From Candidatus Iainarchaeum sp. (GTDB lineage: Archaea; B1Sed10-29; WALL01), in the NCBI GenBank assembly GCA_021162685.1, contig JAGGYF010000014.1, positions 1-11,135 of the forward strand: a stretch of 11,135 nt of DNA. The letters are read 5' to 3'. Shown here in pieces: positions 1,529-9,843 of this stretch. Within the stretch, counting starts at the first letter, position 1; each line of letters starts with the position of its first letter. The notes under the pieces are model-generated. The model was given only the letters and a program-made list of their open reading frames with translations. It was not told where the DNA came from and searched no databases. Position numbers and translations under genes: made by a program.

Positions 1529-2458
1529 ATGGAACTTCTACTTAATGTTTTGATATTAGGTATAAGCTTTGTGGCATTGTTCAAGGGCGCAGATGTATTT
1601 GTTGATGCTGCTGCAAATATCGCAAGGCACTTAGGCATCTCCGAACTTTTAATATCGCTTACATTGGTCGCAGTTGCAACATCCTTACCAGAAACAGGGG
1701 TATCTGTGATTGCATCGTTTAGTGGAGAGACCGCGGTATCTGCATCAAACATTGTTGGCTCTGTTATATTTAACATATGTGTTGCATTCGGTATTATGAT
1801 ACTATTTCTTAGTTTTAAGGCAAACAAAAAGGTGATTGACAGGGATTGTGTTGCAATGCTTGTCTCATACCTCTTGCTATTCACAGCCGTTCTATTCGGT
1901 GGAATAAACTGGATGTGGGGCATAATCTTCATTGTTGCATATGGCGTATACCTCTATTATCTATACAAAGATGTAAAGCAGGATTATGAGCACTCAAAAA
2001 ATAAAGGTTCTATTATCAGAGACCTAGTCTTTCTCGTCATCGGCGCAGTTGTTATCTACCTTGGATCAAAATATGCTGTTGCATCTGCGGTATACCTCGC
2101 AAGAGTGATTGGTGTCTCTGAGTGGGCAATAGGTGCAACTGTACTTGCAGTTGGTACATCATTGCCAGAGTTCGCAGTATCTATCGGCGCATTGAGAAAA
2201 GGGAAACTCATGATATCGCTTGGCAATGTCATAGGAAGTAATGTATTTGATATACTTGTTGCACTTGGTCTATCAGCGATTGTGAATCCAATACTCATCA
2301 GCTTTAATGATATTATATTTGACATCTGGTTTATGTTGATAAGTGGCGCTGCTGTTACGCTATTTGCCATTCACAATAGAAGCATGCATACGCGCGAAGG
2401 TATCTTCTTTGTCCTGCTCTATGTGGGCTACATTATCCATCTTCTTGGTTTTATCTAG
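1529..2458 (+). CDS. Na+/Ca2+ exchanger (CaCA superfamily, YrbG/NCX_Mj-like)
   Basis: 309 aa with about 10 hydrophobic segments in two inverted halves. Alpha-1 repeat ATSLPE...GSVIFNI and alpha-2 repeat GTSLPE...GNVIGSNVFDI. Confidence 0.95.
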   Translation: MELLLNVLILGISFVALFKGADVFVDAAANIARHLGISELLISLTLVAVATSLPETGVSVIASFSGETAVSASNIVGSVIFNICVAFGIMILFLSFKANKKVIDRDCVAMLVSYLLLFTAVLFGGINWMWGIIFIVAYGVYLYYLYKDVKQDYEHSKNKGSIIRDLVFLVIGAVVIYLGSKYAVASAVYLARVIGVSEWAIGATVLAVGTSLPEFAVSIGALRKGKLMISLGNVIGSNVFDILVALGLSAIVNPILISFNDIIFDIWFMLISGAAVTLFAIHNRSMHTREGIFFVLLYVGYIIHLLGFI

Positions 2459-5400
2459 TCAAAACGTCTTAGAACCTTCTGCATCTTTGTCTCCCTTTTA
2501 GTTGGCTTTTTCATCCTTGTGAACAAAAAACCTATGACAGCAATGCCACCAAATAATAATCCTGCATTTGTAAGTGTCAAAAGCCCTGTTCTCGGTTGCT
2601 TTTCCTTGGCATGCTCGTACTCCATCTTTGCGTAGTGAATTGCCAATGCACATCTCCCGCTGTTGTATGCCTCAATGGCTCTTGTACTATTGGTTTTTTC
2701 TGTCCATATCCTTGCACTCTCACATATGGAATTAACCCTATCCTCTATCTCTTCTGCTATCTCTTTACATCTATCAATCATTTGATAATCTGGCTCATCT
2801 ATACTCTCAATGAATTGTTCTATATGATGGATATCACAGATAGTATCATCACTTGAGTCACATGCCTGTCTAAGCTCCTCTATCATTTTGTTCAATGTCT
2901 CTTTATCGCATGCATCATAGAATTGTTCATCAAGTGTTGCTTTTCTGTTGTGCAACAGTTGTTCTACTGTATCAATATTTGCTTTAATCTGCTCTGCCTC
3001 ACTGATAAAAGTAGAATAGTCTCCATGCACATACATTTGTTTGATTGCATCCCAATGGGATAGGAATTGCTCAATATCAAAATCCCTTATGTATGCATCT
3101 AACTGGCTGTATTGCTCTTTTATATCATCAACTTTTGGAGCAATATCATTAAACAATACATCTGCCCTCTTTTTCAATACCTTACTTATCTCTTTCCTCA
3201 ACTCATGTTTTGCTCTCTCAAACAACTCTATTGCACTATCGTATTGCTTCCTCGCAGTGTTTATCTCTGCTTGCTGTACTATCTTTTCTATTTGCTGTGT
3301 ATCTATACCAAGTGACTTTGCTCTATCTATGAGTGTATTGACTTCCTCTCTCTGTCTCTCAATTGTTTGTGCTTGCTCATCTTCATGTTCTATACTGTCC
3401 CTAACTGCATCTATCTCATCATATATTTCAATGGCTCTTGGGATGATTTCATCTTCATCTGCATCAGCAAGTGCCTCTATCATCTCCTCTATCCTTTCAA
3501 CATCATCTGGCGAATCCTGTATATCCTGCAACTCCTCCTCAAGCATTGCTATTGTATCATTTACTAATGAAGATCTCTTCCTCATACGAAATGTTATTGT
3601 AATTCCTTCATCTGGTCCACATGTAAGGCCTTGGATTTTTATTTTATTGCTAGCAACATAGCTCCATGTTCCCCTCTCAACTGATATATCTATTGGCAGG
3701 GAGGGGAATGGAACTGTAATGCTAACATTCTTGTGGTATGCATCACAGTATAAACCAATGGGTAATGCATAAAGCACAGAGTTATCATCCTCCATAAGTG
3801 TTATGGTATCTCCTATATGCACTGAGAGGGGCGTGTTGTTAGATACATACGTAACAGAGACGTTTTCCTCTTTGCCCACATACATTGTAAGGTGTATTGT
3901 ATCTTCTGTTATTGTTATGATTGCGTCATCTTTATCTGATGTTGCTGTGATAACCCCAGGTGCATTGAATGAGATGTGTGCCTTGAAGTGCTCCTTTGGT
4001 GATATCTGCCTTGTCTTTCTAACTAGCATTGTATTCTCATTAATCTCAAGAATATCAGTATACTCATCATTACATAATAGAGGTATTGTCTCTGCATCAA
4101 AGGTCATTAATCTCTTGCCAGGAGGCATATCTTCCTTGATTATGATATAGCCATTACTATACAGCAAAGGTCTATCAGATGAAATGGGTTCAATCACAGG
4201 TATGTGGATTACTGCATCCTCAACAACAAAGTCAAATGGATTGTATATCTGTATATTATATCTTGTATTTACGGGACTATTGCATGCAGGTGGTTCGTCA
4301 AATGTATACAAAACATTAGATATGATGATGTCTTCAGGCTCCACCTCTTCTGATATTTCCTCTATAGCAGTAGTATAGAATGTCTGCATCTCCTTAAGTG
4401 TTCCAAGTGCTGCTTCCACATCAAGGGAATCTTTATAGAAAAATGGCTCATATTGTGATGCCTTGTTTGAATATGTTGCACATCTTGCCTTCGGGTATAA
4501 ACCAGAATCAACAAGTTTTGATAGCATATTTATTAATATATTAAATGTTGCCCTCTTTGATTCCAATGTTTGCTTGTATCTCCTCTTGGCATTATTATAT
4601 ATCTCGTCGATTGTATTCATCGTAATGATGTTTATTTCGTTCATCTCATATATAGAATCTGGCAAAGGATAAGCAATGGCTCTCTCCCTTCTTCTCTTTA
4701 TCTTGTTCAATATCTGTTTATATCTAGAAACGTCCATGTCCTTTTCCGCTCGTTTGATCGTATCTTCTAACACATCTATATTCCTGTCAAGTGACGCGAT
4801 AGTATCCAAATTGCATGTATCCGTTGACTTATTCAAGCATAGGATAATATCTGCCTGTCTCAGCGCATAAGCATATGCTCTTATGGATTCACCAAGTGTT
4901 TGCTTTGACCTCGCACTGTTGCACAATGCCATTACCTTCTGTTTAATAGCCATGAATGATTGCCCTCCTTTCATGTTATTCATTGTATTTGTAATGACAT
5001 TGCACTTGTTCTCTGCCTCTTCCCTCAATGCCCTTGCCTCTTTCATAAGCTTATCCTGCTCTCTCATTGTGTATGCTGAATTGTCTATTATCTTATCAAG
5101 CATGAACGAAACATTTGATAGATAATGTTTTTGCCCATACTGGCACGCTCTCATGCTGTTTATTGAATATGTGTATGTTGCTCTATCCAACTCATTTTCT
5201 AGTCTTCTCTCCTCCTGCATATATGAATTGGCTCTTACATCAATAGGAACATACGACTCTGTCTGCCATCCTGCTATTGCCTCAGCAACACTCCTATCAA
5301 TAAGGTATATCTTCTCGTCCTTTATCCCTTTGTTTTTCTCTCTCAAGTCATTCAACTGTGAAGTTGCGCGTTCTTGCTGTATCTTATAGTGAGTATGCAT

Positions 5401-6234
5401 TTGTTCTATTGCCTTATCCAACCTATCAGCAACTTCAAGCATCTTTCCAACACCACTGAAATCACCTGGTGCGCTACCAACAAGATTGTTGTACCATGTG
5501 CCAAGAGAACGAGGTACCTTTCTTCCCTTGTAGAACGTAAACATCTCGGTATTTCCATAGAACATCAATGTTTGGAAAAACTTTGCATATCTTCCGTGGT
5601 CTACATCATTTAGATTCTCTATCTCATCACTATATACATTAAATGTTTCTGAATGATAGTAGGGGGTTCCAGCCCCAAGGCATTCTAGTTCATCTGCCTT
5701 ATGCTTTACAAATGAGTAGGAACGCTCTGACGCAAGAACTGCTTTCTTGTTTGCTTGTTCAATTTCTAGAGTCATACCCACAAGCGCTTCAATACATTCT
5801 GCTGCGCTTAGATGCGGCATGGCAAATGATGCAGAACAGTATTTCTCTGCATCTCTCTTATACTGCTTTGCGTTTCTTACGTGTTGCCAGCTCTCATCAA
5901 TTAAAGAGGATATGTCCCTAACCTCCTCTTTATTTCCAGAAAAATGTGTAGAAATATAGATATTAGCATCTGTGCCCTCGTGATATCCATCAACATACAA
6001 CATATACATTATAGACTGAGCATTTGATATTGTGTCAGCACCATCAACAAACACAACATACTTGCCTATGGTCTCTACAATGTTGGAAAACCCCTCTGTA
6101 AGAAGCTCAAATTTATCTATAATATTTAGTATCTTGTGTGTGGTTGCATCAAGAGCTATTTCTGTGCCCTCAGCAAATGCTGTATTCAACAAAATAAGCA
6201 GTATAATAAAATACTTCACCAATCCTCTCCCCAT
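2455..6234 (-). CDS. Large hypothetical secreted protein with C-terminal membrane anchor (1259 aa)
   Basis: 3.78-kb uninterrupted ORF with a GGGGAG RBS upstream. N-terminal signal peptide (MGRGLVKYFIILLILLNTAFA/E); helical N-terminal half, beta-rich middle, acidic coiled-coil-like C-terminal third; TM LLTLTNAGLLFGGIAVIGFLF (nt 2583-2521) followed by a basic tail. No family recognised. Confidence 0.9.
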   Translation of the reverse strand: MGRGLVKYFIILLILLNTAFAEGTEIALDATTHKILNIIDKFELLTEGFSNIVETIGKYVVFVDGADTISNAQSIMYMLYVDGYHEGTDANIYISTHFSGNKEEVRDISSLIDESWQHVRNAKQYKRDAEKYCSASFAMPHLSAAECIEALVGMTLEIEQANKKAVLASERSYSFVKHKADELECLGAGTPYYHSETFNVYSDEIENLNDVDHGRYAKFFQTLMFYGNTEMFTFYKGRKVPRSLGTWYNNLVGSAPGDFSGVGKMLEVADRLDKAIEQMHTHYKIQQERATSQLNDLREKNKGIKDEKIYLIDRSVAEAIAGWQTESYVPIDVRANSYMQEERRLENELDRATYTYSINSMRACQYGQKHYLSNVSFMLDKIIDNSAYTMREQDKLMKEARALREEAENKCNVITNTMNNMKGGQSFMAIKQKVMALCNSARSKQTLGESIRAYAYALRQADIILCLNKSTDTCNLDTIASLDRNIDVLEDTIKRAEKDMDVSRYKQILNKIKRRRERAIAYPLPDSIYEMNEINIITMNTIDEIYNNAKRRYKQTLESKRATFNILINMLSKLVDSGLYPKARCATYSNKASQYEPFFYKDSLDVEAALGTLKEMQTFYTTAIEEISEEVEPEDIIISNVLYTFDEPPACNSPVNTRYNIQIYNPFDFVVEDAVIHIPVIEPISSDRPLLYSNGYIIIKEDMPPGKRLMTFDAETIPLLCNDEYTDILEINENTMLVRKTRQISPKEHFKAHISFNAPGVITATSDKDDAIITITEDTIHLTMYVGKEENVSVTYVSNNTPLSVHIGDTITLMEDDNSVLYALPIGLYCDAYHKNVSITVPFPSLPIDISVERGTWSYVASNKIKIQGLTCGPDEGITITFRMRKRSSLVNDTIAMLEEELQDIQDSPDDVERIEEMIEALADADEDEIIPRAIEIYDEIDAVRDSIEHEDEQAQTIERQREEVNTLIDRAKSLGIDTQQIEKIVQQAEINTARKQYDSAIELFERAKHELRKEISKVLKKRADVLFNDIAPKVDDIKEQYSQLDAYIRDFDIEQFLSHWDAIKQMYVHGDYSTFISEAEQIKANIDTVEQLLHNRKATLDEQFYDACDKETLNKMIEELRQACDSSDDTICDIHHIEQFIESIDEPDYQMIDRCKEIAEEIEDRVNSICESARIWTEKTNSTRAIEAYNSGRCALAIHYAKMEYEHAKEKQPRTGLLTLTNAGLLFGGIAVIGFLFTRMKKPTKRETKMQKVLRRFD

Positions 6235-6840: not shown

Positions 6841-7059
6841 ATGCTGAAGGAACTTATCAATAGCATGGTTGATGCAGTTGAGGACCTCGCAACTGCAATT
6901 ATCGCAGTTGTCCTCGTTATATTCGTTGCTGGAGAATTCTATGCGAACATGTTCCCAGCTACAACACAGGAGTTTTGGTATCCAAGTGCATTATTTGTTG
7001 TTGTTTTGATACTAAAACTCATAAAGGATATCTTCCAAAAGGTAAGAAGAAAAAAATAG
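6841..7059 (+). CDS. Small hypothetical membrane protein (72 aa, 2 TM)
   Basis: GGTGAG RBS, two hydrophobic stretches (LATAIIAVVLVIFVAG and ALFVVVLILKLI) and a basic C-terminus (KVRRKK). Fills the gap between its neighbours exactly. Confidence 0.8.
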   Translation: MLKELINSMVDAVEDLATAIIAVVLVIFVAGEFYANMFPATTQEFWYPSALFVVVLILKLIKDIFQKVRRKK

Positions 7060-7932
7060 CTATTCAAGAACCTTAAATGAATCAATAACACCGTCGCCGT
7101 CTGTATCCAACCCTTCAACTACATTTTCTCCTTTTAGGTCAGTGCCACTCATTATTGCTAATATTGCCGCCCTTGTGCCTGCTCTTGACCTACCAGCAAC
7201 AACAAGCATGTGTTTGTTCTCGTTCCATGGGTTCTTTGTCAGAACAATAAGACCATTATGTTCGTGATACCTCTCACCTGTTTTTTCTGAGTATATTGTC
7301 CAAACATCTCCTGTCTCTATTCTTATGGGCAACTCGTCATTTATCCTTGCTGTTATCATATTTGTCACAGGTCCACCAACAACAATTATATTCCCCTCTA
7401 AGTCATTCTGCCTTGTATCTGTGTCAAGAAGAACACTTGGTTTGACACTTGTTGATAATGTACCTAAGTACAAACATAGGTCAGAAACAAAATGTGTATC
7501 TCTTGCCCTTGCATGATGTGGGCCATGTGGGTCAGGACTACCAACAATGATCTTTGCATCAAACACACCATCAGAGAAGAATGGGGCCAATAGGCTAGGG
7601 ATATCAACATGTTTCTTTGTTAATTTCCTCCATTCATCAACAAGTGCTATTGCATATGCCTTGTCCTTTGCTTTGTAATATCTGGCAACTGCCCCCTGCT
7701 TTTCCTCTGTCTTCACAACTGTAATAGCACCCAATCTCCTGAGCTGATTTATGTGATAGTATACCTTTTGCTCATCCATGCCTATTCGCTCTGCAAGCCT
7801 ACTAGGGTAATCTGGCTCCTTTGCCAGCTCTTTTAGTATTTTCCACCGCGTTGGGTCCAGGAGCTTCTGTAGCTCTCTTGGCTCTCTTATAAGGCGGGCG
7901 GGCATCTCTCCTGCTTTTGATACAATTCTCAT
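7060..7932 (-). CDS. ArsR-like winged-HTH transcriptional regulator fused to an S-layer-C-like alpha/beta domain
   Basis: N-terminal LLDPTRWKILKEL...YPSRLAERIGMDEQKVYYHINQLRRLGAI...ARYY is an ArsR/HTH_20-type wHTH. The C-terminal domain has IIVGSPDPHGP, NIIVVGGPVTN, LVVAGxxxxGTRAA and a terminal DxDxDG (DTDGDG). ATG 7932 preferred; GTG 7941 possible. Confidence 0.85.
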   Translation of the reverse strand: MRIVSKAGEMPARLIREPRELQKLLDPTRWKILKELAKEPDYPSRLAERIGMDEQKVYYHINQLRRLGAITVVKTEEKQGAVARYYKAKDKAYAIALVDEWRKLTKKHVDIPSLLAPFFSDGVFDAKIIVGSPDPHGPHHARARDTHFVSDLCLYLGTLSTSVKPSVLLDTDTRQNDLEGNIIVVGGPVTNMITARINDELPIRIETGDVWTIYSEKTGERYHEHNGLIVLTKNPWNENKHMLVVAGRSRAGTRAAILAIMSGTDLKGENVVEGLDTDGDGVIDSFKVLE

Positions 7933-7940
7933 AAAAACCA

Positions 7941-7963
7941 CTATAGTTTTTATTATAATGGTT
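7941..7963. promoter_or_regulatory. Putative operator site 1 (downstream of the regulator's TATA box)
   Basis: CTATAGT-TTTT-ATTATAA pseudo-palindrome (7941-7958). 7941-7963 is a 20/23 inverted copy of 8020-8042. Confidence 0.65.
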
Positions 7964-7978
7964 ATATAAAAACCTTTG
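7963..7978 (-). promoter_or_regulatory. BRE/TATA promoter of the regulator gene
   Basis: The - strand reads CAAAGGTT-TTTATATA, with the TATA box at 7970-7963, about 30 nt upstream of ATG 7932. Confidence 0.65.
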
Positions 7979-8019
7979 TTTTTCCCACTTTTTTCTTAAT
8001 ATTTTTAAGATAGTGATTA

Positions 8020-8042
8020 AACCATTATAATGGAAATTATAG
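8020..8042. promoter_or_regulatory. Putative operator site 2 (immediately upstream of the glmS BRE)
   Basis: TTATAAT-GGAA-ATTATAG pseudo-palindrome (8025-8042), overlapped by the perfect 12-bp palindrome CCATTATAATGG (8022-8033). Confidence 0.65.
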
Positions 8043-8056
8043 AAACTATTTATAAA
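8041..8056 (+). promoter_or_regulatory. BRE/TATA promoter of glmS
   Basis: AGAAACTA-TTTATAAA, with the TATA box at 8049-8056, about 30 nt upstream of ATG 8086. Confidence 0.7.
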
Positions 8057-8085
8057 AAAGAGAACACCAATCTGTTGGCGATGTT

Positions 8086-9843
8086 ATGTGTGGTATCATA
8101 GGATATAAAGGATTGAGGAATGCCAGTGATGTTGTTATAAATGGACTAAAACGCTTGGAATATAGAGGGTATGATTCTTGGGGAATGGCCCTCATTGGCT
8201 CTGATATGAACGTTGTGAAGAATGTTGGCAAGATCGGAGAAGTAGATGAGATTAATGTTGGGGAGGCACATATTGGTATAGGACATACACGATGGAGTAC
8301 ACATGGAAAGGTAAACAAGCTTAATGCACATCCGCACCTGTCATGCGATAAGAAGATTGCAATTGTACATAATGGTATTATTGAGAACTATCAGGAAATG
8401 CGAAGATACCTTATATCAAAAGACCATGTGTTTGTTTCAGATACAGACTCTGAGGTGATTGCACACCTTATTGAGGAACACATGAAAACGGTGGACTTTG
8501 TGGAGGCTGTTAGGAGGGCTGTTAATGAGTTAAAAGGAAGTTATGCAATTGTTGCTATGCATAAAGATATGAAATATCTTGTTGGAGCGAAGAAGGATTC
8601 ACCCCTTGTCATAGGTGTCGGAGAAAACGAATTGTTTTTTGCATCAGATGTTCCTGCCTTTCTGGAATACACAAGAGATGTTGTATTCATGGATGATGGT
8701 GAGCTAGCAGTACTAAATAGTGGTGTTGAAATCTTTGACATAGAAACAGGGAAGAAGAAAAAAAAGGACATAACACATGTTGATTGGAGTGCAGAGCAAG
8801 CATCAAAGGGAGAATTTGAGCACTTTATGATGAAAGAGATCTCTGAGCAGAATAGGACAATAAAACAGGCGCTCTCACACAGCAGAGATACCATAGAGGA
8901 TATTGCGAACAGAATAAACAATGCATTTGGTATATTCTTTGTTGCATGTGGAAGCTCGTATCATGCTGCACTAACCGCCTCATACATCTTCTCAAAAATA
9001 GCAAAAAAACACATCAATGTTGTTGTTGCCTCTGAATTCCCATACTACAAGGACTTTCTAACAGATAGGACATTGATGATGCCAATATCGCAATCAGGAG
9101 AAACAGCAGATGTACTACAAGCAGTTAAAACAGCAAAAGAGAAGGGAACGCATGTTGTCTCAATAGTGAATGTTGTGGGAAGTTCGTTGTACAGGCAATC
9201 TGATTATGCATTAACAATGAACGCGGGGCCTGAGATCTGTGTATTATCAACAAAAACATATACCTCTCAATTAACGTTGCTTACACTTCTAGCATACGCA
9301 TGTGCTGGAAAAATAGATGAAGGAAAGTTACTTCTTGAGAGGGTAGCAAAGGAGGTTGAAGAATTAACATCTCCTGAAACTAGAATCAGGCTTGTTGAAC
9401 TTGCATCAAAACTGAAAGATAAAAAGAACATATTTGTGATAGGTAGAGGGGTAAATTATCCTACTGCACTTGAAGCAGCATTAAAGATAAAAGAAGTATC
9501 CTATATACATGCAGAAGGATTCCCAGGTGGAGAGCTAAAGCATGGAACAATAGCACTCATCTCAGAAGGCACACCTTGTATAGTGCTTGCTCCAAATGAT
9601 GAAACCAGGGAGGAGATAATAAGCAATGCAATGGAAATAAAATCAAGAGGAGGGTACATCATAGGTATAAGCCCAGAGAACAATGAGGTATTTGACTTCC
9701 ACATAAAGGTTCCTGATGAGGGGATTGCATCATCCATACTCAATATCATACCCATACAAATACTTGCGTATTATCTTGCTGTGCTGAGAGGATGTGACCC
9801 AGACAAACCAAGAAACCTAGCAAAATCCGTGACTGTAAAATAA
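8086..9843 (+). CDS. glmS: Glutamine--fructose-6-phosphate aminotransferase (isomerizing)
   Basis: N-terminal MCGII nucleophile, RLEYRGYDSWG, GHTRWSTHG, NAHPH, HNGIIEN, SDTDSEVIAHL, SQSGETAD, ELKHG and C-terminal PRNLAKSVTV. Confidence 0.99.
   Translation: MCGIIGYKGLRNASDVVINGLKRLEYRGYDSWGMALIGSDMNVVKNVGKIGEVDEINVGEAHIGIGHTRWSTHGKVNKLNAHPHLSCDKKIAIVHNGIIENYQEMRRYLISKDHVFVSDTDSEVIAHLIEEHMKTVDFVEAVRRAVNELKGSYAIVAMHKDMKYLVGAKKDSPLVIGVGENELFFASDVPAFLEYTRDVVFMDDGELAVLNSGVEIFDIETGKKKKKDITHVDWSAEQASKGEFEHFMMKEISEQNRTIKQALSHSRDTIEDIANRINNAFGIFFVACGSSYHAALTASYIFSKIAKKHINVVVASEFPYYKDFLTDRTLMMPISQSGETADVLQAVKTAKEKGTHVVSIVNVVGSSLYRQSDYALTMNAGPEICVLSTKTYTSQLTLLTLLAYACAGKIDEGKLLLERVAKEVEELTSPETRIRLVELASKLKDKKNIFVIGRGVNYPTALEAALKIKEVSYIHAEGFPGGELKHGTIALISEGTPCIVLAPNDETREEIISNAMEIKSRGGYIIGISPENNEVFDFHIKVPDEGIASSILNIIPIQILAYYLAVLRGCDPDKPRNLAKSVTVK

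Follow-up and report, generated by a model that had tools for sequence, protein, structure and literature searches.

A candidate local regulator of hexosamine synthesis with an S-layer-anchor-like domain, encoded divergently from glmS in DPANN archaea

The window analysed here is the whole stretch of 11,135 nucleotides from Candidatus Iainarchaeum sp., in which a regulator gene and glmS lie head-to-head. The regulator gene occupies 7060-7932 on the reverse strand and encodes 290 aa from an ATG at 7932; an alternative GTG start at 7941 was considered, and the N-termini of orthologues give no support to it. On the forward strand, glmS at 8086-9843 encodes glutamine--fructose-6-phosphate transaminase (585 aa), with the Pfam domains SIS and GATase_6/7 and a TIGR01135 match of 3e-209 (696 bits; the cut-off is 418). 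The spacer between the two genes, 7933-8085, is 153 bp long, close to the 150 bp or so of the original prediction.

That prediction also placed two copies of one pseudo-palindrome in the spacer, each next to one promoter. Both copies are present (7941-7958 and 8025-8042) and both are near promoters, but their placement needs refinement: one is downstream of the regulator's predicted TATA box and the other upstream of that of glmS. We describe the sites by the dyad AYTAWAA-N6-TTWTART, which was written from the sites of the window and of close relatives and then tested on 86 loci. Candidate operator O1 (ACTATAG-N6-TTATAAT, 7940-7959) and candidate operator O2 (ATTATAA-N6-TTATAGA, 8024-8043) have one mismatch each to this dyad, and their starts are 84 bp apart. 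O1 is placed between the regulator's ATG at 7932 and its probable TATA box, TTTTTATATAA (7962-7972, reverse strand, some 38 nt ahead of that ATG); counting the CC/GG flanks, the site extends over 7938-7961 and reads CCAYTA-N12-TARTGG. O2 ends 5 nt before the probable glmS TATA box, TTTATAAAA (8049-8057, forward strand, 28 nt ahead of the start codon at 8086), so that O2 overlaps the position of the BRE. Both TATA boxes are inferred from sequence, and all site positions relative to a TATA box rest on boxes of this kind. O2 also overlaps a perfect 12-bp palindrome, CCATTATAATGG (8022-8033), and the two operators are inside a longer inverted repeat with 36-nt arms that are 75% complementary. The operator was at first read as CCATTA/TAATGG with N0 and N12 spacing (the perfect 12-bp palindrome), and this reading was given up because the N6 dyad fits both sites and also those of other phyla.

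How unusual is such a pair of sites in one spacer? The pattern YTATART-N4-AYTATAR occurs in the whole genome (1,113,673 bases, 39.6% GC) only at 7941-7958 and 8025-8042, a count that is partly circular, since the pattern was built from those two sites. With at most one mismatch the N6 dyad occurs 7 times in 1.11 Mb, and the control spacings N4, N5, N7 and N8 give 5-11 occurrences each. Thus the genome-wide count is at background, but two of the seven, O1 and O2, which are the only matches in the window, fall within one 153-bp spacer, and this is above background.

TATA-like motifs in this genome peak at -30 to -26 from start codons, and together with the position of the glmS TATA box this gives a glmS leader of at most about 10 nt, as expected from the very short leader predicted for a TATA box about 30 nt from the ATG. 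No fold signal is seen (z +0.84) in the start region 8058-8130, made up of the last 28 nt before the ATG and the first 45 nt of coding sequence. The covariance model of the glmS ribozyme (Rfam RF00234) has no match upstream of glmS in the window and five related loci (L044, L045, L056, L077 and L100), and Rfam at E<=1 finds no family in the same set bar a tRNA in L077. The sequencing runs containing the stretch are four DNA runs of one study, with no RNA run listed.

What kind of protein is the regulator? Its model (pLDDT 88.2) has an ArsR/PH1932-like winged helix (residues ~1-98), a flexible linker (99-107) and an alpha/beta domain (108-290), and the Pfam matches are HTH_20 (6.4e-12, residues 24-73), HTH_5/ArsR (3.8e-7) and S_layer_C PF05124 (5.8e-12, residues 163-261). 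The name ArsR-type, used in the original prediction, is right for the fold, with Z of 10-11 to the structures of CzrA, SmtB and ArsR, but does not extend to the metalloregulator models, which score below cut-off (NF033788 27.8 bits against 55; CmtR 33.9 against 150). The TrmB model PF01978 is also below its cut-off (18 bits against 25.6), and there is no TrmB_C match in Pfam. Members of the family occur across DPANN, 903 of them at E<=1e-10. In an alignment of 122 regulator sequences, H136, D170, G247 and D276 are invariant; Q55 and Y59 of the recognition helix are at least 90% conserved, and so are G274, D280, G281 and D284 in the region of a DxDxDG loop (276-284) at the end of the alpha/beta domain. 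There is also a conserved GSPDPHGP..ARARD stretch.

Many family members carry the name 'S-layer protein' in NCBI-derived protein names, which for the regulator is a mislabel, an annotation error. TIGR01564, the model of the whole S-layer protein, covers the regulator only with model positions 489-568 of 571, and PF05124 only with profile positions 93-174 of 177. The regulator begins with a winged helix and, as judged by eye rather than by a predictor, has no hydrophobic start like that of a signal peptide. The genome also encodes an S-layer protein, an 812-aa ORF with a PF05124 match and a signal-peptide-like start.

The C-terminal alpha/beta domain of the regulator resembles the anchoring and dimerisation domain of S-layer proteins. 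Against the 9FSA domain the profile E is 4.7e-7 and the Foldseek value 3.7e-7, and VIA-align to 9fsa_A gives Z 13.2 with rmsd 2.7 over 127 aligned residues. The best ESM Atlas scores for this part, 0.87 and 0.85, are both to PF05124 clusters and, being below 0.9, serve as leads only. The 9FSA domain is described by its authors as responsible for dimerisation of the anchor, forming the two-fold axis (PMC11410804). A model of two copies of residues 100-290 of the regulator reaches an ipSAE of 0.92, against 0.00 for the best of three controls; at least 88% of contacts are common to the runs and the partner pLDDT is at least 89. Of 30 proteins solved as pairs, 20 reach the mark applied in this test, as does 1 of 23 solved as single chains, and the pass may echo the solved 9FSA dimer. 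In the model, the conserved ARARD stretch (142-146) is partly in the interface rather than in an obvious pocket. The GSPDPHGP..ARARD stretch as a phosphate-binding loop is an idea only, with residues 142-146 in the modelled dimer interface.

The gene neighbourhood gives a further view of function. Full-length orthologues of the regulator were found in 14 of 40 relatives, and glmS is divergent alongside in 13 of these 14, while the downstream kinase is kept in 7 of 14. Among 80 further loci from distinct species, glmS is divergent upstream in 59: adjacent in 38, behind GlmU-like, PGM_PMM, NTP_transferase or GNAT genes in 14, and behind unrelated genes in 7. The rest comprise 4 loci with PGM_PMM/NTP_transferase only, 10 with unrelated neighbours (10 of 73 informative loci) and 7 with too little upstream DNA. 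These counts overstate the number of independent events, since the loci come from related species. Where glmS is not adjacent, the intervening genes are usually GlmU-, GlmM- or nucleotidyltransferase-like. Of the 30 relatives having glmS, 16 are without the regulator, so it is dispensable for glmS expression.

The dyad is conserved along with the gene pair. At most one mismatch from it, a site is found upstream of the regulator in 53 of the 86 loci, against a mean of 1.6 and a maximum of 6 in 40 dinucleotide-preserving shuffles. The spacing is specific, with 53 loci for N6, 32 for N3 and 13 for N9, and no more than 7 for other spacings from 0 to 12; there are 4.14 sites per kb upstream of the regulator and 0.034 elsewhere in the same loci. 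ATA stands at -8 to -6 from the dyad in 35-38 of the 53 orthologous sites, which supports the regulator's predicted TATA box. The source genome (G000), G002, G004 and G008 each contain a single copy of the CC/GG-flanked form, immediately upstream of the regulator; in the last three, the exact dyad pattern likewise has one match, at the regulator promoter. In five genomes of other phyla an exact-dyad scan gave 1-5 matches each, against 0-8 for the reversed control, and its one informative outcome was recovery of the regulator locus in three. A clade with a YYY recognition helix has mostly AT-type dyad flanks; it is one clade only and has L014 as an exception, and we base no claim on it. The only exact match in the source genome is in the divergent spacer of an operon of PIG-L deacetylase, HAD, CYTH and GlmU-like genes (the C42 locus), a possible second target; it is a single match, and the PIG-L gene occurs in one of five relatives. 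Thus the two expectations of the original prediction, that homologues are linked to hexosamine genes and that the motif recurs in orthologous spacers, are borne out, the latter in several DPANN phyla.

Is there a mechanism that fits these results? With a conserved dyad at its own promoter and at linked candidate target genes, the regulator has the sequence signature of an autoregulated one-component system. We are rather confident that it acts locally, on its own gene and on hexosamine genes. The fuller reading, in which a one-component regulator conserved in DPANN controls hexosamine synthesis locally at the level of transcription, activating glmS while repressing itself, is to us evenly poised, and activation of glmS taken by itself stands slightly below that. 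In this scenario two subunits would pair through the C-terminal domain, the homologue of the dimerising domain of Methanococcus-type S-layer anchors, and the paired winged helices would recognise AYTAWAA-N6-TTWTART. As O1 is between the predicted TATA box and the start codon, protein bound there should block RNA polymerase and so repress the regulator gene; the autoregulation of the original prediction fits this conserved position. Protein bound at O2, over the BRE and 5 nt upstream of the glmS TATA box, might instead help to recruit TFB/TBP and so activate glmS. The logic would be that of LysR-type regulators or of Tgr/TrmBL1, repressing from downstream of TATA and activating from upstream, and the O1-O2 distance of 84 bp, about eight helical turns, might allow cooperative occupancy.

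The same sites could also serve to repress both promoters, with a tetramer or two cooperating dimers looping O1 to O2 and covering both the regulator's start site and the glmS BRE/TATA, and with an end product such as UDP-GlcNAc or GlcN6P as co-repressor. We take this to be rather unlikely, yet it is the strongest competitor. Feedback repression is the usual logic for biosynthetic genes, and a site that abuts BRE and TATA, as O2 does here and its counterpart does in locus L002, can equally exclude TFB. Two dyads are 84-86 bp apart in 7 of the 10 adjacent regulator-glmS spacers with two or more sites, in several phyla; the offset profile peaks at 85 bp. Most lineages, however, have no strong dyad over the glmS promoter: among 45 adjacent spacers, 14 have no dyad at one mismatch or fewer and 21 have a single one, near the regulator, and the site on the glmS side is far less conserved than the one on the regulator side, a partner some 85 or 108 bp away being present in roughly 14 of 53 loci. 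At loci with a separate, distant promoter for glmS, the edge of the dyad is about 24 nt upstream of the TATA-like box, too distant to occlude that promoter. What is more, sites at targets other than the regulator are upstream of TATA in every case examined by eye (the window, L002, L044, L045, L056 and C42), never downstream.

Then what signal would tune the switch? On the activator reading GlcN6P, GlcNAc-1P or UDP-GlcNAc might do so by acting on the C-terminal domain, and a hexosamine metabolite as effector is our tentative choice, held less firmly than activation itself. That the regulator senses a ligand and serves surface glycosylation, as the original prediction has it, is a hypothesis. 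It is unlikely, though worth stating, that hexosamine supply is set by a different signal, either a divalent cation at the DxDxDG loop or the state of the envelope. The conservation of D276 and its neighbours G274, D280, G281 and D284 speaks for this, as do weak profile matches to EF-hand proteins (E about 0.03), the homology to the S-layer anchoring domain and the presence of such an S-layer protein in the genome. On the other hand, the loop is flanked in the model by strands (269-275 and 285-288) and not by helices; it is thus not an EF-hand and may be purely structural. Nothing ties it to DNA binding, and the ArsR metal-sensor models stay below cut-off (NF033788 27.8 bits against 55). A bolder version, which we consider a long shot, is that the C-terminal domain was recruited from an S-layer anchor and still recognises the S-layer protein before export, as a mixed dimer, or an anchor-bound glycan or lipid-linked sugar. 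If so, the cell would gauge envelope assembly directly and match amino-sugar synthesis to it, an envelope-to-gene feedback across DPANN.

Does the regulator control glmS at all? It might control itself alone, the proximity of glmS being conserved gene order or a shared bidirectional promoter region. Conservation is far stronger for the dyad on the regulator side, no dyad or only one is present in 14 and 21 of the 45 adjacent spacers, and many relatives keep glmS without the regulator. But the linkage to glmS persists across phyla while other neighbours vary (13 of 14 against 7 of 14 for the kinase), and the genes that replace it next to the regulator are other hexosamine genes, not random ones. 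The dyad also accompanies a separated glmS: of 7 loci in which unrelated genes split the pair, 5 have it 119-198 nt upstream of glmS, and in G038, with regulator and glmS on different contigs, a dyad with one mismatch precedes glmS by 64-83 nt. None of the 14 loci with glmS as an internal gene of an operon has a dyad upstream of it. Control of the regulator gene alone is thus, in our judgement, quite improbable. Still more so is the idea that the dyad belongs to promoters in general or is bound by a different factor: its AT-rich, TATA-like sequence would suit that, and binding by the regulator is our proposal, but the motif is rare (7 in 1.11 Mb, the window's two both in the spacer), spacing-specific and, in its exact form, unique to the regulator promoter in G002, G004 and G008, and within 300 nt upstream of glmS the best dyad has 3-5 mismatches in 16 of 16 genomes lacking the regulator as against two or fewer in 13 of 14 genomes having it.

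All this makes the regulator a strong candidate for an archaeal switch dedicated to the supply of cell-surface sugars. A literature search found no paper on this regulator and, in full text with most subscription journals and supplements outside its scope, no dedicated regulator of glmS or UDP-GlcNAc supply for any archaeon. To our knowledge, hardly any work has addressed gene regulation in DPANN archaea. In the present case a protein family, a probable operator and a probable regulon can be read from sequence; as they are conserved in at least five labelled DPANN groups, the idea is testable with one purified protein and the 153-bp DNA. The reuse of a surface-layer assembly domain in a cytoplasmic transcription factor is an unusual domain recruitment, and for host-attached, surface-dependent organisms control of the amino-sugar supply may be central.

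How does this system compare with known ones? The bacterial glmS ribozyme and the GlmY/GlmZ sRNAs exert dedicated control over the same gene, as is proposed here, whereas control here would be transcriptional and protein-based, the leader being at most about 10 nt, unstructured and without Rfam match. Closest in the N-terminal winged helix are the Pyrococcus proteins PH1932 (PDB 1ULY/2CWE) and Phr (PDB 2P4W), with profile E values of 4.8e-14 to 1uly and 3.5e-7 to 2p4w and VIA-align Z of 11.8 and 11.7. In all three, a separate C-terminal dimerising part comes after the winged helix, but that of PH1932 and Phr, which is helical, is unrelated to the alpha/beta S-layer-anchor-like domain of the regulator, and neither protein is linked to glmS. 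Phr represses from a site over the transcription start. For the C-terminal domain the nearest relative is the Methanococcus voltae S-layer protein domain (PDB 9FSA; PF05124, TIGR01564), with which the regulator shares the fold and detectable sequence kinship. In the S-layer chain two segments far apart in the sequence (aa 24-75 and 484-576) come together to form this domain, while in the regulator it is continuous; unlike the S-layer protein, the regulator has a winged helix and is without the large outer part, and its family adds the GSPDPHGP..ARARD stretch and the C-terminal DxDxDG loop, both absent from the 9FSA alignment.

In proposed working mode the regulator is like TrmB, TrmBL1 and Tgr of the Thermococcales, sugar-sensing proteins with a winged helix and a C-terminal effector domain whose effect depends on the position of the site relative to TATA, although it scores as a non-member of that family and its motif differs. 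NagC of E. coli controls amino-sugar genes, including glmUS, and binds a pair of operators in a divergent spacer; it loops the divergent nagE-nagB region, which a looping repressor at the present locus would resemble. LysR-type regulators are divergent from their targets, repress themselves and activate the target. NagC (ROK) and the LysR-type regulators belong to unrelated families and work with bacterial transcription machinery, and thus the likeness of the DPANN regulator to them is one of logic only.

The regulator gene at 7060-7932 on the reverse strand is an open reading frame (ORF) of 290 aa, whose product matches the Pfam families HTH_20 (6.4e-12, residues 24-73), HTH_5/ArsR (3.8e-7) and S_layer_C, PF05124 (5.8e-12, residues 163-261). 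A spacer of 153 bp (7933-8085) separates it from glmS at 8086-9843 on the forward strand (TIGR01135, 3e-209, 696 bits against a cut-off of 418), and by these measures the original prediction described both genes and the spacer correctly. The contig, C10, belongs to a genome (G000) of 1,113,673 bases in 45 contigs, 98.4% complete and with 39.6% GC; the public records most closely related to it bear the name Candidatus Iainarchaeum, one of the DPANN lineages. Immediately downstream of the regulator there is a convergent 72-aa hydrophobic ORF, 6841-7059(+), which shares 26 nt with the beginning of the kinase gene. It was matched by tblastn in the loci of 5 of the 14 relatives that carry the regulator (L002, L003, L004, L006 and L008) and has no Pfam family; it is probably a small membrane protein. 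Further away, a 1259-aa ORF at 2455-6234(-) has no family above cut-off in a Pfam/NCBIfam search, with a weak DUF5790 match of 19.8 bits against 26.8.

Is the head-to-head arrangement kept in other genomes? A full-length orthologue of the regulator was found in 14 of 40 relatives, and glmS is present in all 14; another 16 of the 40 genomes have glmS without the regulator. In 13 of the 14, glmS is divergent and beside the regulator, and only 7 retain the adenylate-kinase-like gene that flanks the regulator at its other end. In a wider genome collection, glmS was found at 59 of 80 loci, always upstream and on the opposite strand. It is adjacent at 38 loci, lies behind co-directional GlmU-like, PGM_PMM (GlmM-like), NTP_transferase or GNAT genes at 14, and behind unrelated genes at 7. 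At 4 more loci glmS is not in view and PGM_PMM/NTP_transferase genes stand in its place, 10 loci have unrelated neighbours, and 7 have less than 900 nt of upstream DNA. Thus 63 of the 73 informative loci show a link to hexosamine genes, a positive outcome for the linkage test that the original prediction proposed.

The family itself is large. A search of 1.84 billion cluster representatives gave 921 matches at E<=1e-3, of which 137 reach E<=1e-30; almost all are full-length proteins of about 280-320 aa. A collection clustered at 90% contained 903 members at E<=1e-10. Where members are named, they are called 'S-layer protein' (NCBI) or 'ArsR family regulator' (JGI). According to the record titles of the best 80 genomic loci, 16 are from Woesearchaeota, 14 from Aenigmatarchaeota, 7 from Nanoarchaeota/Nanoarchaeia, 4 from Nanohaloarchaea (L049, L061, L094 and L096), 3 from Iainarchaeum, 2 from Micrarchaeota and 2 from Nanobdellati, while 17 are labelled only 'archaeon', 11 'uncultured Methanosarcinales', 2 Bathyarchaeia and 2 bacterial (Campylobacterales 1, Aminicenantes 1). 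Fifteen of the 80 have non-DPANN titles (L040, L041, L042, L044, L055, L057, L067, L071, L075, L082, L086, L089, L090, L098 and L100); these may be mislabelled bins, or the family may have a wider range.

The second line of evidence is a conserved dyad. The consensus AYTAWAA-N6-TTWTART was derived from the sites of the window and its close relatives, and then tested on 86 orthologous loci (95 before the removal of 7 duplicates and of 2 loci whose upstream DNA was too short). In the 150 nt preceding the regulator gene, 53 of the 86 loci have it at <=1 mismatch and 74 at <=2, and the test for a shared motif in orthologous spacers came out in favour of the original prediction. These counts overstate the number of independent events, as the loci come from related species. 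For 40 dinucleotide-preserving shuffles the corresponding numbers are 1.6 on average (maximum 6) and 12.9 (maximum 21). The signal is specific to the spacing, with 53 loci for N6, 32 for N3, 13 for N9 and at most 7 for every other spacing from 0 to 12, and to the position: dyad density is 4.14 per kb within 200 nt upstream of the gene and falls to 0.034 per kb across the other 473 kb of these loci. In each of the relatives G002, G004 and G008 the exact N6 dyad and its flanked form CCAYTA-N12-TARTGG have one match each per genome, just upstream of the regulator; the same scan gave no exact match in G001, G005 and G006. The bases at -8 to -6 from the dyad are A, T and A in 35-38 of the 53 sites, which fits a TATA box abutting the dyad on the side away from the gene. 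In 13 loci (L038, L041, L052, L057 and 9 others) an N3-spaced variant lies 20 bp upstream of the N6 dyad. The two together make four alternating half-sites between the putative regulator TATA box and the start, an arrangement suggestive of two dimers bound next to each other.

In the window the consensus dyad occurs only at the two candidate operators, O1 (7940-7959) and O2 (8024-8043), with one mismatch apiece and a start-to-start distance of 84 bp. O1 is flanked by CC/GG, giving CCAYTA-N12-TARTGG at 7938-7961, and O2 overlaps the perfect palindrome CCATTATAATGG at 8022-8033. The pattern first proposed for the operators, YTATART-N4-AYTATAR, occurs in the whole genome only at 7941-7958 and 8025-8042, both in the spacer, a count that is partly circular since the pattern was written from those two sites. 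Genome-wide, the N6 dyad has 7 matches at <=1 mismatch, one of them exact, and control spacings of N4, N5, N7 and N8 give 5-11 matches with none exact. The genome total is therefore at background level, but two matches within one spacer of 153 bp are not. Elsewhere, on contig C33 (7960-7980; L107), the palindrome ACCATTA-TT-TAATGGT has the half-sites of O1 and O2 with N2 spacing, and sits in a short spacer between an M42 aminopeptidase gene and a PIN-domain gene.

Does glmS itself belong to the targets? Sequence comparison gives four reasons to think so. First, of the 7 loci in which the pair is split by unrelated genes, 5 (L044, L045, L056, L077 and L100) have a dyad 119-198 nt upstream of glmS, and none was found there in L043 and L059; at the 14 loci that have glmS inside a glmU or glmM operon, a dyad upstream of it was found in none. 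Second, in G038, a genome with the regulator and glmS on separate contigs, a one-mismatch dyad lies 64-83 nt upstream of glmS. Third, in all 16 genomes that have glmS without the regulator the best match within 300 nt upstream has 3-5 mismatches, while in 13 of 14 regulator-bearing genomes the best match upstream of glmS has at most 2. Fourth, of the spacers with two or more dyads, 7 of 10 keep a spacing of 84-86 bp, which spans Iainarchaeota and lineages labelled Nanohaloarchaea, Aenigmatarchaeota and Nanobdellati. The profile of dyad offsets has maxima at 85 bp (6 of 53 at <=3 mismatches) and 108 bp (4 of 53), against a background of 0-3. On the other side, multiple sites at <=1 mismatch are present in just 10 of the 45 adjacent spacers; 21 have a single site and 14 none.

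The sole exact dyad of the genome is on contig C42 (9972-9991; L104 4973-4992), in a divergent spacer where it lies, in either direction, upstream of a TATA-like box. One of the two flanking units is an operon for a PIG-L-type deacetylase, a HAD hydrolase, a protein weakly matching CYTH and a GlmU-like protein that combines NTP_transferase and hexapeptide; the other encodes a DUF4215 protein whose start resembles a signal peptide. As a single match beside an operon that is not conserved in close relatives, it is only suggestive of a second target.

How would the sites lie relative to the promoters? For the 384 genes of this genome whose upstream DNA is free, TATA-like motifs are most frequent at -30 to -26 from the start codon, so most mRNAs are leaderless or nearly so. 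The putative glmS TATA box TTTATAAAA (8049-8057) starts at -37 and lies 28 nt before the ATG, and that of the regulator (7962-7972, reverse strand) starts at about -38, which would leave either gene a leader of no more than about 10 nt. O1 would then lie between the putative TATA box of the regulator and its start, while O2 ends 5 nt upstream of the putative glmS TATA box, over the BRE position, both placements being relative to boxes read from the sequence. No fold signal (z +0.84) was found in the glmS start region 8058-8130, which covers the last 28 nt before the ATG and the first 45 coding nt, and no Rfam family was matched there, hence no glmS ribozyme. A different arrangement is seen in three Woesearchaeota-type loci with a separate glmS promoter (L044 837-1052, L045 1480-1625 and L056 1603-1790, glmS strand). 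After a dyad and a TATA-like box come about 100 nt ending in a strong hairpin and U-run (fold z -0.6, -3.0 and -2.1, respectively), and then a second TATA-like box about 28 nt before glmS. The hairpin stretch, which has no Rfam match, could be a short transcript or an attenuator-like leader.

By fold, the regulator combines an ArsR-like winged helix with a domain of the S-layer anchoring type. Its AlphaFold2 model (15-row alignment; pLDDT 88.2, pTM 0.62) has a winged helix (1-98), a low-confidence linker (99-107) and an alpha/beta domain (108-290). The N-terminal part resembles PH1932 (Z 11.8) and Phr (Z 11.7). The C-terminal part resembles 9FSA (Z 13.2, rmsd 2.7, 127 residues, 26% identity), which a sequence profile also finds (E 4.7e-7), as well as a BcsB segment (Z 12.0) and the N-terminal domains of GH115 and GH67 glucuronidase (Z 11.7 and 10.3). 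9FSA is a Methanococcus voltae S-layer domain to which its authors attribute anchor dimerisation (PMC11410804). A dimer model of residues 100-290 reached an ipSAE of 0.92 against 0.00 for the best of three controls, with at least 88% of contacts in common between runs, partner pLDDT of at least 89 and a symmetric interface at residues 142-158 and 160-169. Of 30 proteins solved as pairs, 20 attain the mark used for dimers, as does 1 of 23 whose structures are single chains; because the solved 9FSA dimer may have aided the pass, the model shows likeness more than proof. Among 122 family representatives H136, D170, G247 and D276 are invariant, and recognition-helix Q55 and Y59, D145, N181, G186-P188, N191, G252-T253, D280, G281 and D284 are at least 90% conserved. 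The C-terminal DxDxDG loop sits between two strands in the model and is thus not an EF-hand; tested for membership, the regulator fell outside the metal-sensing ArsR, S-layer, TrmB and EF-hand proteins alike. The genome's own Methanococcus-type S-layer protein is probably the 812-aa product of C31:21179-23617 (L116 1680-4118, +), with a signal-peptide-like start and PF05124-type N- and C-terminal segments. It resembles the regulator weakly but collinearly, and a 282-aa ORF directly preceding its gene has a winged-helix-like stretch.

How might such a protein act? A dimer joined through the C-terminal domain would read the dyad. At its own promoter the site would cover the interval between TATA box and start, where archaeal repressors classically bind. 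At the other candidate targets read by eye (glmS in the window and in L002, the separate glmS promoters of L044, L045 and L056, and the C42 spacer) every site precedes the TATA box, at a distance of 4 to about 25 nt. Archaeal regulators such as Tgr and TrmBL1 act as repressors when their site is downstream and as activators when it is upstream, and by this rule we favour autorepression with activation of the hexosamine genes and cooperative occupancy of O1 and O2, although the sign of control is tentative, a little short of an even call. The main rival, that a loop between O1 and O2 represses both promoters with an end product as co-repressor, we consider rather unlikely. A metabolite of the pathway as effector is the economical guess, possible but doubtful, with a cation or envelope signal as the alternative.

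In its logic the regulator resembles TrmB-type sugar regulators, divergent regulators of the LysR type, and NagC. A search of the full-text literature, supplements and most subscription journals aside, returned no article that describes a regulator of glmS in archaea or a transcription factor carrying PF05124. The regulator would be of the local one-component type, in which, for archaea, both the effector/dimerisation domain and the target pathway are new.
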